Shown here: piece after piece, positions 8,909 to 12,096 of the stretch | Numbering within the stretch: the first letter of the stretch is position 1 | Layout: every line of letters starts with the position of its first letter | Origin: a virus | DNA length: 64,000 nucleotides | IMG/VR virus record: IMGVR_UViG_3300009159_000033 | Strand: one strand, 5' to 3' | The notes under the pieces: generated by a model | Databases searched by the model: none | The model's input: only the letters and a program-made list of their open reading frames with translations | Told to the model about the DNA's origin: nothing | Position numbers and translations under genes: made by a program

Positions 8909-9619
8909 ATGAGTAAGTTTAAGAAGGCGGTTATGTTGCATAACAAAGAGGAGTGGCAGCATTATCAGAAAGATATGATAACTGAATTAAATATGCTTTC
9001 TTATGGCCATTCGTTGTCAATACAGTTACCTAAAAGTCCAGAATCTTATCCCTGCCTAGTGTACACAACATTATTACCTTTAAGTCAAAACTCTGAAGCT
9101 ATAGATCACGCTGAAATCGCCTGTTGCTATGTGTATACAGACAATGCAGAAGAACTAGTAAAGTTAATAGGCCCAGAAAATCTGCTTGATTTCTTTTCTT
9201 CGTTGGAAAGCAAACTGGCTACAGATAACACATATACGGAGAAATATAAGGAGTGCCATAACTACGAAGGGCACAAAGGTAGGGAAGGGGTTGAAGGCAA
9301 GGACGAAGATGACGAAGAAGAAATTCTTTTTGATGACGATGCTTATCTTCCAGCTGCAGACTCTTTTGAAGCGGATGAGGATGAGGATGAGATAAAGATG
9401 AAAAAAGGTAAAACAGAAGACTATGTGCCAGCTTCTGCTGGTGTATTACTACTTACCTTGGTATCAGAGCTACGAAGCATAGGAGCTTTGCGGTTAGATC
9501 GAATGCTGGAAACTGCAAAGGAAATAGAAAAGTGGATGGTGGAAAACAAAGAAGAAAATCTACATTCGGATCTGTGGGAACTTTTAAAAAGATTGTGGGA
9601 TAAAAAAGATGCTAGCTAA
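8909..9619 (+). CDS. Hypothetical protein with an acidic tract
   Basis: 236-aa ORF, RBS AAGGA, central D/E-rich stretch. Confidence 0.6.
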   Translation: MSKFKKAVMLHNKEEWQHYQKDMITELNMLSYGHSLSIQLPKSPESYPCLVYTTLLPLSQNSEAIDHAEIACCYVYTDNAEELVKLIGPENLLDFFSSLESKLATDNTYTEKYKECHNYEGHKGREGVEGKDEDDEEEILFDDDAYLPAADSFEADEDEDEIKMKKGKTEDYVPASAGVLLLTLVSELRSIGALRLDRMLETAKEIEKWMVENKEENLHSDLWELLKRLWDKKDAS

Positions 9620-10244
9620 CTTCATAAACCAGTGTTGGTGGTACATGGAGATTCCAAGAACAGGTTCATCTACCATTGATAGAGGCTTGCGTAGGTTTTT
9701 TCCTCATGCACAAGCAATATATCAGAAACATTGGCCAATCACGCCTGCTCCGTTTATGGATAAGGATACAAAAGAAGTTTTTGGTTTTACTTCTATTAGA
9801 AACCCTTACAGTCGGGCAGTAAGCTGTTGGCAGTTTTTTACTCAGCCTGGGAAAATCTCTTTTCTAGACTGGACAAAAGAGCGAAGAGACCAAGGTTTTA
9901 TGGATGTACATATTGAGGCGCGTCCGCAACATTTCTGGTTTAATCTTCATCAGTGGGAAGCTGTTATTCGGCAAGAGCATCTAGAATATGATTTTTGGCA
10001 AATAGCTCAAAAGCTTAACTCTCGTTTGTCTCCCATGCCATTAATTAAATACAATGATATAAATGGACCATGGGTAAACAGAGTGCATGCTAAAACTTCT
10101 CGGGATAAGCCTTGGCAAGACTACTACTGTACAGAAAGTAAGCAAAATGTTCTGCAACTGTACCAAGAAGACTTTAAATGCTTAGCCCCTTGGTATTCTG
10201 TCCAGTTTCCTACTATTGCTGTCACCTCTGCTCAAGAGGTATAA
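9609..10244 (+). CDS. Sulfotransferase (Sulfotransfer_2-like), paralog of 441..1028
   Basis: YMEIPRTGSSTI and FTSIRNPYSRAVSCW. Confidence 0.75.
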   Translation: MLANFINQCWWYMEIPRTGSSTIDRGLRRFFPHAQAIYQKHWPITPAPFMDKDTKEVFGFTSIRNPYSRAVSCWQFFTQPGKISFLDWTKERRDQGFMDVHIEARPQHFWFNLHQWEAVIRQEHLEYDFWQIAQKLNSRLSPMPLIKYNDINGPWVNRVHAKTSRDKPWQDYYCTESKQNVLQLYQEDFKCLAPWYSVQFPTIAVTSAQEV

Positions 10245-10245
10245 T
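10216..10245 (+). promoter_or_regulatory. Sigma70-like promoter for the structured RNA/leader
   Basis: TTGCTG (10216-10221), 18 nt, perfect TATAAT (10240-10245). The predicted start (~10251) coincides with the 5' end of the closing stem. Confidence 0.55.
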
Positions 10246-10250
10246 CAGCC

Positions 10251-10472
10251 CAAGTGGCTTTATCGCAGGTGCCGATAGGTTAGGAAATGCAGTGCAGCTA
10301 GGATAGCCGCAATTTGTATTAGGATTGCTGGGCAAGTGAAAAACAGCCAGCTGGTGGAGTTTCAGTCGCACCTTATGACTGTTACCAGCGGAACGCTTCC
10401 GCACTGGACTTGAGGGAGGGGATCTCAAGGGGCCACTTAGCTATTTCTCTTGCTTACAAGGATGTCACAAGC
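10251..10472 (+). ncRNA. Candidate structured GGA-rich RNA (sRNA or long 5' leader)
   Basis: Closing stem 10252-10260/10430-10438; hairpins 10261-10277, 10297-10307, 10309-10328, 10350-10389 and 10409-10429; inner stem 10290-10295/10401-10406; nine GGA motifs up to 10462. Confidence 0.55.
10454..10465 (+). promoter_or_regulatory. CsrA/RsmA binding site overlapping a Shine-Dalgarno sequence
   Basis: TTACAAGGATGT matches 11/12 positions of the CsrA SELEX consensus RUACARGGAUGU; ACA/UGU stem with an AGGA loop; ATG at 10473. Confidence 0.6.
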
Positions 10473-10814
10473 ATGACAACTACTCAATACCACGCTTTAG
10501 CCTTAACCCAAGAACGATTAATACAGCAAGTGGCATCGGTTGAGGCTAAGGTGGATCATATGAGCCATGATATTGGTATCTTGTGTAAGCTAGTGCGGGA
10601 TGGAAACGGCCAGCCATCTATTATGCAGCGGTTAGCCCAAGTAGAGACAGTGTTAGAAGCTCAAGTTAAAGATTTAGAACAAATTAGCCAATATGCCAAT
10701 TCTATGACTGCGTCCCGCATGCTTACTCGAACACAGTTAGTTGTAGGGTTATCGGGGATGATACTTACTGTGTTGCTTTCTTCATTTTCAGTTTATGCAG
10801 CAATTATGAAATAG
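10473..10814 (+). CDS. Coiled-coil protein with a C-terminal transmembrane helix (holin/XhlA-like?)
   Basis: ATG 10473 with AAGGA RBS is preferred over TTG 10410. GNGQPSI..RL..VE motif; C-terminal LVVGLSGMILTVLLSSFSVYAAI. Confidence 0.5.
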   Translation: MTTTQYHALALTQERLIQQVASVEAKVDHMSHDIGILCKLVRDGNGQPSIMQRLAQVETVLEAQVKDLEQISQYANSMTASRMLTRTQLVVGLSGMILTVLLSSFSVYAAIMK

Positions 10815-10829
10815 GTTAAGGGAGTTTTT

Positions 10830-11414
10830 ATGAGTTTGATTTCTACGGCTGATATTCCAGATTATCGGCATTTATTGCTTTATGATGTTTTACAAATGCC
10901 GGAGAAATGGGCTGAAGTTAAGATGACAGGTTTGTTACAACTCACTAATTCAAAATGTGCAGCTCCTAGCTATTTAATAGTAGGCATACCCACTGCTTTG
11001 GTTCGTGGTGTTTTTGATGCAATGCATGAACCTGGTATTTCTTTACCTGCATCTGTAGACGGAGGGGCTATGCGTGCCGGTATTGTGGTCATGACTCCGG
11101 AAGAACTAAAACAAATAGGTGGTTCTGAAAAGATTAGCGAGCGGGGTAAATCTTTTAGTTATTACCTTGATGGGCTAACAGAAACACCAGCTAAAGGGTG
11201 GCCCGGTGTCTCCACTTGCTGGCACATGAGAATTAAATCACCAGACCTTGGTAAGTTACGCCGTAGCTACGGGTTACCTACCAAAGTTGAAGGTGATTCT
11301 GACTTTTCCATAGTAGTGGCAGTGCGTAAAACTGGAGTACTTACTGCCAATGCTACGAGTAAATCTACGAAGCAGAAGGATTCTCAGGAGCTTCCAAGTT
11401 GGACTCTGCCTTAA
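10830..11414 (+). CDS. 2H-phosphoesterase-like protein lacking both catalytic His
   Basis: Layout VRGVFDAMHEPG..AGIVVM..ERGKSFSY..SPDLGKLRRSYGL..FSIVVAVRK resembles phage 2H proteins, but GIVV and SIVV replace the HxS/T motifs. Confidence 0.45.
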   Translation: MSLISTADIPDYRHLLLYDVLQMPEKWAEVKMTGLLQLTNSKCAAPSYLIVGIPTALVRGVFDAMHEPGISLPASVDGGAMRAGIVVMTPEELKQIGGSEKISERGKSFSYYLDGLTETPAKGWPGVSTCWHMRIKSPDLGKLRRSYGLPTKVEGDSDFSIVVAVRKTGVLTANATSKSTKQKDSQELPSWTLP

Positions 11415-11577
11415 GCTTATTCTCAATTAACTTTGCGATTTCGCTGCGGTGAACAGCAACTTCACGGGGAGCTGCTATCCCAATTTGAATTTTGTCACCA
11501 CGGATGTCAACAATGGTGATAGTGATGTTATCACTGATTTTAATGCTCTCGCCTTTTTTTCTACTTAATACTAGCAT
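11365..11577 (-). CDS. csrA: Carbon storage regulator CsrA/RsmA (RNA-binding translational regulator)
   Basis: MLVLSRKKGESIKISDNITITIVDIRGDKIQIGIAAPREVAVHRSEI; RBS AAGGAAGGA. Confidence 0.97.
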   Translation of the reverse strand: MLVLSRKKGESIKISDNITITIVDIRGDKIQIGIAAPREVAVHRSEIAKLIENKLKAESNLEAPENPSAS

Positions 11578-11620
11578 TTGAATCGTCCTTCCTTGAAGTT
11601 AAAATGCTTGGAATTCGACC

Positions 11621-11649
11621 ACCATACTTATTTTATACAAGCAAGTCAA
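11621..11649 (-). promoter_or_regulatory. Sigma70-like promoter of csrA
   Basis: On the minus strand, TTGACT-17 nt-TATGGT. Confidence 0.55.
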
Positions 11650-11661
11650 TAAGGAGTTATC

Positions 11662-12096
11662 ATGGAAGCTTTTCTTCAACGTTTACCTGCAATATTTAAC
11701 AATAAAACGGCAGCTAACAGCAATGGCTGGTACATTGCGGAATCAAATATAAAAGGTAAAGGCATATTTGCTGACAAGGATTACAAGGAAGGGGAGATCA
11801 TTGGCAGTGGGGGTACAGCGGGCGGAGAAGATGAATTCGGTTCTAAAATCTGGAATTTAACAGAACTGGCTCGTTATTGTAACCATCAATGGAAATCGAA
11901 TGTTGACATAAAGAAAGATAATGATCAAATTGATTTAGTGGCAAAACGAGAAATTAGCAAGGATCAAGAAATTGTAGCGGATTACGCACAAGTTTCTCGA
12001 GAGCTTGGAGCTCGTTCACGCATGATGTGGAATGGCAAAGATGTACCATCTACCGACTTTTCTGACTATGTGGAAAAAAACAACGAAGATGAATAA
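11662..12096 (+). CDS. SET-domain protein (putative lysine methyltransferase)
   Basis: ESNIKGKGIFA, RYCNHQ and EIVADY SET signatures; N-terminal NNKTAANS motif. Confidence 0.85.
   Translation: MEAFLQRLPAIFNNKTAANSNGWYIAESNIKGKGIFADKDYKEGEIIGSGGTAGGEDEFGSKIWNLTELARYCNHQWKSNVDIKKDNDQIDLVAKREISKDQEIVADYAQVSRELGARSRMMWNGKDVPSTDFSDYVEKNNEDE
11844..11859. promoter_or_regulatory. 16-bp palindromic element, copy 3 (intragenic, exact consensus)
   Basis: TAAAATC-TG-GAATTTA. Confidence 0.55.

Follow-up and report, generated by a model that had tools for sequence, protein, structure and literature searches.

RNA partners of the CsrA family of proteins have been described both as the regulatory RNAs CsrB/CsrC and RsmX/Y/Z, in which many GGA motifs are held in hairpin loops and single-stranded linkers, and as messenger leaders such as those of hcnA in Pseudomonas and glgC in E. 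coli, in which a hairpin at the ribosome-binding site (RBS) presents the sequence A/U-CANGGANG-U/A and a further GGA lies upstream within reach of the CsrA dimer. Genes of this family are also carried by mobile elements, among them phages, a plasmid (RsmQ) and the integrative conjugative elements of Legionella, which hold CsrA paralogues. PHROGs lists families of 'CsrA-like regulator', and more than 200 IMG/VR contigs encode such a protein. A review from 2020 counted csrA in 30 of 2517 phage genomes and gave neither a known role nor a partner RNA for it (PMC7366521), and the literature we searched holds no later report of a phage Csr RNA. Here we describe a candidate for such a partner in an IMG/VR virus record (IMGVR_UViG_3300009159_000033; 172.7 kb, ~84% complete by estimate), of which a stretch of 64,000 nucleotides, hereafter the window, was analysed. 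The element is a conserved, structured RNA at positions 10253-10437 of the window, and it stands at the head of an operon that converges on a phage csrA gene.

The RNA resembles CsrB/CsrC and RsmX/Y/Z in the placement of its many GGA motifs and in its genetic tie to a CsrA-family protein. It differs from them in lacking sequence or covariance-model similarity, in having a long-range closing helix and a kissing loop, in being contiguous with an open reading frame (ORF) with no terminator detected, and in persisting with fewer GGA motifs where csrA is missing. With the hcnA and glgC leaders it shares both the hairpin at the RBS and the upstream GGA; unlike those leaders it contains a conserved tertiary domain of 185 nt in which six more sites lie, its regulator and target are neighbours on the phage, and in one subgroup the motif stands apart from the true Shine-Dalgarno (SD) sequence. 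Other mobile elements likewise carry a csrA-family gene, whereas here a dedicated conserved RNA accompanies it. Finally, the 5' position, a multi-helix junction closed by helix P1, the pseudoknot, conserved junction nucleotides and a variable first gene recall the riboswitches, from which the RNA is set apart by the lack of a match to a known class, by a gene context that implies no ligand (function-unassigned genes or a protease), by the absence of alternative expression-platform pairing, and by conserved positions dominated by one repeated protein-binding trinucleotide.

Relatives were gathered as 42 homologues of the first-gene protein and then as ~120 further loci, obtained by protein alignment against viral and metagenome contigs from lake and ocean samples. 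An iterated nucleotide profile (nhmmer) matched the RNA element in 94 loci, 69 of them unique, with E-values of 1e-19 to 1e-57. The match held even where the first-gene protein was only 33-45% identical, and in all matched loci the RNA lay on the same strand at the head of the operon. Three more relatives, all high-GC, were added by a covariance model, and about 70 distinct RNA variants (71 counted) are present in lake and ocean phage contigs. The carriers are uncultured phages of 170-215 kb, and the genome described here holds a single copy of the RNA. Counts of GGA motifs, promoters and structure given below refer to the 68 unique RNA sequences in the alignment, and counts of csrA linkage to the 62 unique RNA-bearing loci with sufficient downstream sequence. 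Rfam 15 returned nothing on the whole window at the gathering score and nothing on 10150-10550 at E<=10, a scan of the window found no tRNA or tmRNA, and neither DNA nor protein matched among 50,697 records of cultured phages. A strict pattern scan of 185,000 prokaryote species genomes gave a sole match, in a Nitrospirota metagenome-assembled genome, which we rejected as chance because it came without a model match and without neighbouring homologues. On these comparative grounds 10253-10437 is a new large structured RNA family, whatever its ligand.

An earlier first-pass annotation of this DNA had placed in the region a promoter, nine GGA motifs, two hairpins, the site TTACAAGGATGT and csrA, and on checking the sequence each lies where it had been placed. 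The promoter and the parts of the RNA are:

10216-10245, plus strand: sigma70-type promoter (-35 TTGCTG at 10216-10221, 18-nt spacer, -10 TATAAT at 10240-10245)
10253-10437, plus strand: RNA core, from the 5' strand of P1 through its 3' strand
10253-10260 with 10430-10437, plus strand: P1, the closing helix
10261-10265 with 10273-10277, plus strand: P2
10286-10320, plus strand: P3 arm, a length-variable region
10327-10331 with 10347-10351, plus strand: P4
10359-10366 with 10378-10385, plus strand: P5
10388-10402, plus strand: P6
10409-10414 with 10424-10429, plus strand: P7
10267-10272 with 10368-10373, plus strand: kissing loop (pseudoknot) of 6 bp, recognised by covariation, between the P2 loop AGGTGC and the P5 loop GCACCT

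Transcription is predicted to start at ~10252, the base preceding P1. Among the 68 relatives the -35 element reads CTCGAC, CTTGAT or TTGCTG and the -10 element TATAAT, TAGAAT or TATGAT, with constant spacing, and the promoter ends 6-8 nt 5' of the first base of P1. This conserved spacing makes the promoter real in the comparative sense and indicates that the RNA begins at P1. The TTGCTG promoter was not picked up by our promoter scan because its -35 element is weak. Downstream of it, the 228-nt stretch 10245-10472 contains no credible ORF. The open frame on the minus strand at 10222-10428 was considered as a coding sequence and rejected: it carries 10 replacements in 64 amino acids relative to the related locus L004, and it is therefore not under protein selection. 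In the same comparison the RNA is ~93% identical and the neighbouring protein 71% identical. The promoter-driven non-coding RNA proposed by the first-pass annotation is thus borne out by the conserved promoter, by a covarying fold and by the lack of protein selection on the antisense frame. In a lake metatranscriptome a 166-nt contig is identical to 10265-10430 and none covers the ORF; such contigs show no RNA ends and metatranscriptome libraries can hold contaminating DNA. We read the contig as a weak hint of transcription of the RNA. In run X24, the parts of the window left uncovered were not counted as evidence, and runs with a small share were left out of habitat naming. The only other metatranscriptome piece in the 4-kb stretch is a 153-nt contig over 9264-9416, inside the ORF of an acidic protein at 8909-9619.

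The fold of the RNA was derived from the alignment. RNAalifold recovered P1, P2, P4, P5 and P7, with compensatory changes in 28 of 32 pairs, and the P3 arm, folded sequence by sequence, forms a hairpin with GGA at its apical loop in 66 of the 68. In the kissing loop all six pairs show changes on both sides (one of them is split evenly, 34 sequences having C-G and 34 U-A), and paired cells amount to 97.5%; over the whole structure the corresponding figures are 34 of 38 pairs and 96.4% of cells. Sliding the partners against each other gave 34-48% pairing, and the observed values were reached by no shuffle. The covariation indicates that the RNA is a compact pseudoknotted fold of seven helices, not a string of separate hairpins. 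The minimum free energy of the single sequence is unremarkable (z-score -0.75), and the case for more than chance is carried by the comparative data and not by single-sequence statistics, since one sequence alone makes a modest case. Two further stretches are conserved and free of GGA, namely the P4 loop at 10332-10346 (GTGAAAAAC) and the CTTAGCRG loop of the longer P6 found in most relatives; the latter has been deleted in the window's own clade.

Within 10245-10472 there are nine GGA and one TCC, the GGA lying at 10283, 10301, 10322, 10356, 10390, 10406, 10415, 10420 and 10460. By this count the stretch ranks among the top 0.9% of 228-nt windows on the same strand of the 173-kb genome, and nine GGA are reached in 2.2% of mononucleotide shuffles. 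Two hairpins display such motifs in the window sequence, GCTA-GGA-TAGC at 10297-10307 and CTTGAG-GGAGGGGAT-CTCAAG at 10409-10429. Conservation among the relatives, by which the first-pass annotation had meant its GGA motifs to be judged, holds for seven of the nine, which lie at conserved positions; those at 10390, within the P6 stem, and at 10415, at a variable loop position, are not conserved. The seven sites are:

S1, 10283-10285, plus strand: in the invariant P2/P3 junction AGGTTAGGA; GGA in 88% of the 68 sequences, reading GAG throughout a csrA-less clade
S2, 10301-10303, plus strand: P3 apical loop; GGA in 85%
S3, 10322-10324, plus strand: P3/P4 junction; GGA in 76%, lost throughout the csrA-less clade
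S4, 10356-10358, plus strand: GGnGGAG in the P4/P5 junction; GGA in 88%, all four G invariant
S5, 10406-10408, plus strand: P6/P7 junction; GGA in 57%, GG invariant
S6, 10420-10422, plus strand: P7 apical loop GGnAGGGGAT (10415-10423); GGA in 97%, kept in the csrA-less clade
S7, GGA at 10460 within the motif CAAGGATG (10457-10464), plus strand: RBS hairpin loop

No trinucleotide but GGA holds six or more fixed positions in at least 70% of the sequences; its seventh position is kept in 57%. The runner-up, AGG, is fixed at three places that overlap GGA, and all others at one or two. None of the six to seven conserved GGA sites falls inside a helix of the consensus structure. The P7 loop is the most conserved stretch of the RNA, its AGGGGATC being nearly invariant.

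The last of these sites lies in a hairpin directly in front of the first gene:

10452-10472, plus strand: RBS hairpin, with stem GCTT (10452-10455) pairing with AAGC (10469-10472) and the start codon ATG 10473 directly 3'

The first-pass annotation had read TTACAAGGATGT, at 10454-10465 just 5' of this ATG, as a near-perfect CsrA site over the RBS, and the relatives agree. The RBS motif is CANGGANG in 59 of 65 diverged relatives, and its N positions vary, with all four bases found at the first. Together with its flanks the motif forms A/U-CANGGANG-U/A, here ACAAGGATGT at 10456-10465, which is the published Rsm/CsrA (RsmE) consensus (PMC4353343), and the candidate site is thus recognised from its conserved sequence. 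The stem that presents it differs by lineage yet stays complementary (CTTCTC/GAGAAG, CTCTT/AAGAG, TGAC/GTCG). In a marine group the motif lies 17 nt 5' of the AUG and a separate AGGAGG serves as the SD, which argues that the motif is not conserved merely as an SD. A wider regulon marked by CANGGANG was considered and set aside: across the genome such sites number 88 against 62 +/- 8 in shuffles, and most matches at an RBS are ordinary AAGGAGG SDs. The GGA of the P7 loop (10420) is 40 nt upstream of the RBS GGA (10460). CsrA dimers bridge sites tens of nucleotides apart, and a second site is therefore available within bridging distance.

The candidate protein partner is encoded close by, on the opposite strand:

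11365-11577, minus strand: csrA, 70 amino acids, convergent with the RNA operon (Pfam CsrA, PF02599, 2.8e-23, 82.1 bits against a cut-off of 27)
11586-11595, minus strand: tandem GGA, CAAGGAAGGA, over the csrA RBS, from the sequence
11649-11621, minus strand: promoter-like site of csrA, TTGACT-17-TATGGT, from the promoter scan

The protein also matches the PHROG 'CsrA-like regulator' at 1.2e-19. CsrA contacts RNA through L2, L4 and R6 of its N-terminal strand and through R44 in VxVHRxEI. In the closest solved structure to the phage protein, RsmE (2JPP, 1e-15), which is bound to an RBS hairpin of the hcnA type, the N-terminal segment MLvLsRK (MLxLxRK) and the segment VAVHRsEI (VAVHRxEI) align identically. 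The first-pass annotation had given csrA a promoter of its own and two GGA in its RBS, and both features recur: TTGACTTGTCCCC...TATAGT-like sequences are found 5' of csrA in relatives, and two or more GGA occur within 30 nt of its start, in the form CA[N]GGAAGGA (CANGGAAGGA), in 58 of 62. E. coli CsrA is known to regulate its own synthesis, and the pattern at the phage csrA RBS fits this. A second csrA lies outside the window (G000:C1:167233-167385, minus strand; L002). It is divergent, encodes 62 amino acids with VKVRRGEL where VxVHRxEI is usual, and has an RBS with a single ACAGGAG; the related genome G004 likewise has two csrA.

Every genomic context that we fetched is alike: a gap of 250-370 nt leads to the first gene, csrA comes in convergent orientation, in most cases after a 2H-like gene, and a SET-domain gene lies beyond it. 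The co-occurrence with csrA in related phages that the first-pass annotation proposed to examine was found: csrA lies 0.4-2.2 kb downstream of the RNA, always convergent, in 59 of the 62 informative loci, and the RNA or its GGA motifs are gone where csrA has been lost. The link also survives turnover of the intervening genes, both the loss of the 2H-like gene and the insertion of a protease gene together with an ORF.

These losses constitute natural variants. In clade A (L104, L224-L227) there is no csrA between the 2H-like and SET genes, and in one member, a complete 205-kb genome with terminal repeats, csrA is found nowhere. The RNA of this clade has lost none of its helices and retains kissing loop, P7 loop and GG doublets. 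GGA remains only at S2 and S6, sometimes at one more site; L104, with two of seven, is the lowest of the 68, and the sites of its relatives (~3) were scored by eye. Total GGA in clade A come to 3-6, whereas four relatives with csrA, taken from the same alignment, have 8-10; the clade A RBS has a plain GAGG SD instead of the CANGGANG hairpin. At the usual place of csrA, L104 has a plus-strand ORF of 117 amino acids (L104:3356-3709), and in the other members the 2H-like and SET genes abut; no csrA remnant was found in the L104 gap. Clade B (L151, L228/L229) has lost both RNA and csrA and retains the genes and, as seen in L151 and L228 although the RNA is deleted there, the promoter. Its protein shows 73% identity among the members and 42% against clade A, and clade B is judged from its sequences to have arisen independently of clade A. 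In the distant, high-GC L221, csrA is present without the large RNA, and a small GCAGGACGC hairpin-like motif, recognised by eye, stands just 5' of the SD. For L217, L151 and L170, csrA was sought in partial sequence. Binding of CsrA to the GGA sites and to the RBS hairpin would be expected to leave loss patterns of this kind.

On balance we lean towards the reading in which 10253-10472 is the 5' leader of an early phage operon, read by the host RNA polymerase, operated by CsrA and acting at the same time as a sink or buffer for that protein. The RNA is probably the first viral RNA partner of CsrA, an assignment made from conserved sequence and gene context. In most lineages six or seven GGA are displayed in apical loops and junction strands, and the end hairpin presents CANGGANG at the RBS or just 5' of it. 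Translation of the first gene may be blocked by CsrA dimers that engage the RBS hairpin and, at the same time, neighbouring loop sites such as that of P7, and the extra sites could let an abundant leader soak up CsrA with high avidity and so buffer the free protein. CsrA might in addition limit its own synthesis through CANGGAAGGA at the csrA RBS. Because the fold is kept in the csrA-less clade A, the folded core appears to have a further role independent of phage CsrA. The binding, repression and titration in this scheme are inferred from the promoter, fold, GGA conservation, csrA linkage and loss patterns that we observed.

Several observations weigh against operation of the leader by CsrA. 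The constraint on the RNA is far above that on known Csr/Rsm RNAs, a pseudoknot is present, and the invariant AGGTTAG, the P4 loop GTGAAAAAC, the P6 loop CTTAGCRG and AGGGGATC are not explained by CsrA binding. The GG doublets are better conserved than the A that follows them and persist without csrA, and tertiary structure may therefore account for some of the GGA signal. The entire gene block is syntenic and the SET gene also travels with the RNA, which makes adjacency alone weak evidence. L221 shows that csrA does not require the RNA, and the loss patterns amount to two evolutionary events. Lastly, no csrA was seen in two RNA-bearing loci, L105 (a record 82% complete) and L217 (5.3 kb examined, and still GGA-rich), whose csrA status we regard as uninformative.

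The main rival, which we consider doubtful, takes several of these points as its foundation. It holds that the RNA is a structured cis-regulator independent of CsrA, aptamer-like or a site for another factor, whose G-rich junctions are a tertiary core and where CsrA acts at most on the RBS hairpin or is present by plain synteny. A compact fold with a covarying kissing loop, several conserved stretches without GGA, and an invariant GG followed by A in only 57-88% at four sites would all suit such a regulator, as would the retention of fold, P7 loop and GG doublets throughout a csrA-less clade that has diverged, and a first gene that, as behind riboswitches, varies between a membrane protein and a trypsin-like protease. 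On the other hand, no Rfam class matches, we saw no alternative pairing of the kind that marks an expression platform, and seven unpaired repeats of one trinucleotide are unexpected for an aptamer. This rival also leaves unexplained the CANGGANG hairpin, the parallel loss of GGA adenines and hairpin exactly where csrA is absent, and the deletion from clade B of both RNA and csrA.

A combination of the two is conceivable, and we regard it as unlikely: in such a two-input switch, the GG doublets would build a functional tertiary core (for ligand sensing, stabilisation of the messenger or a G-rich core), and phage CsrA would compete for the same guanines, presented as GGA, and remodel the fold.

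Quite unlikely, in our judgement, is a free trans-acting sponge, in which an RNA of ~190 nt ending after P1 accumulates, titrates host CsrA and reprogrammes the infected cell. The first-pass annotation had suggested a sponge of the CsrB/RsmZ type, and of that suggestion the tie of a GGA-rich RNA to csrA stands; the loose-sponge form does not, given a compact pseudoknot that is the 5' leader of an operon with no terminator detected. In favour of a free sponge, one GGA occurs per about 27 nt, CsrC having a density in the same range, and the promoter is strong, conserved and of host type. A U-rich tract often follows the 3' strand of P1 in relatives, yet a terminator scan found no site between the P1 3' end (10437) and the ORF start (10473). 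The sole RNA-library contig over the element stops short of the ORF, which would suit a free RNA, although contigs cannot show RNA ends. Against a sponge, the conserved RBS hairpin links the element with the downstream start codon in nearly all lineages. A phage with a sponge and one or two csrA would also be self-defeating unless the sponge serves the phage protein. Very improbable, finally, is an action of the purine-rich motifs on the ribosome as SD-like standby sites, enhancer or anti-SD decoy (AGGAG, GGAGGA, GGGGATC): several sites do read AGGAG or GGAGG and the P7 loop GGGGATC has what we take to be a 6/7 match to the complement of the 16S 3' end, but the RBS motif varies as CANGGANG, including the poor SDs CATGGACG and CACGGACG, and the motifs erode where csrA is lost, the ribosomes being unchanged.

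The operon that the RNA precedes contains two genes in the window:

10473-10814, plus strand: first operon gene, 113 amino acids, with two predicted long helices, a conserved VRDGNGQPS turn and a hydrophobic C-terminal tail
10830-11414, plus strand: second operon gene, weakly 2H-phosphoesterase-like (Pfam 2H-SAK at 9.6e-5, under the cut-off)

The first-pass annotation had supposed that the circuit times a holin-like gene, a proposal that we do not uphold. ORF 10473, with its 42 homologues, matched no Pfam and no PHROG family, and no holin profile; XhlA appeared for 2 of 20 members at a best E of 0.02, among coiled-coil false leads, and was rejected. An Atlas lead with a score of 0.91 stood at rank 14 only, and the AlphaFold model (mean pLDDT, the predicted local distance difference test, of 65) is too weak for a fold search. 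In a marine subgroup (L193:809-1777, L203:1456-2409) the RNA is followed first by a gene for a trypsin-like serine protease (Pfam Trypsin_2, ~1e-15), behind which come an ORF of ~210 amino acids and then the membrane-protein gene. The 2H-like gene is missing from the marine subgroup in which csrA comes directly after the first gene. Where both are present, the 3' ends of the 2H-like gene and csrA overlap convergently by ~50 nt (11365-11414 in the window), as in all relatives that have both; antisense or transcriptional interference at this overlap is possible.

Some neighbouring features may be recorded here. A minimal SET-domain gene at 11662-12096 (Pfam SET, 2.3e-8) is divergent from csrA across an 84-nt spacer and is a companion of the module in almost all relatives. 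Directly 5' of the promoter the window has a sulfotransferase-like gene (9609-10244), which L087 and L089 share. The close relatives L003 and L004 lack it, their acidic-protein gene adjoining the promoter, and it looks like a recent gain or loss. Elsewhere in the genome, a non-coding gap of ~340 nt between two long ORFs (L222; window -2070 to -1729, G000:C1 ~83.9-84.2 kb) begins with AAGTGGCT like the leader RNA and has no match in Rfam. Its possible role as an RNA complementary to the leader RNA (window -2065 to -1735; 8 complementary 8-mers against 0.8 in shuffles) was considered and rejected as not special, because the count is equalled at ~10 other places in the genome.

Regardless of its ligand, the element adds a new family of large structured RNAs, whose seven helices come with a pseudoknot and an invariant loop. 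For the reading in which CsrA operates the leader, it offers a well-defined and widespread RNA with a candidate protein ligand next door and natural variants that behave as predicted. If the two-input switch were true, a protein would operate this structured RNA, which in turn would control both an early operon and how much free CsrA the infected cell contains, and the locus would form the first self-contained viral Csr system, comprising regulator, autoregulation and dedicated RNA. The questions of why mobile elements carry CsrA, and how their own expression stays undisturbed by it, may thereby become testable on a transcript of 230 nt and a protein of 70 amino acids.

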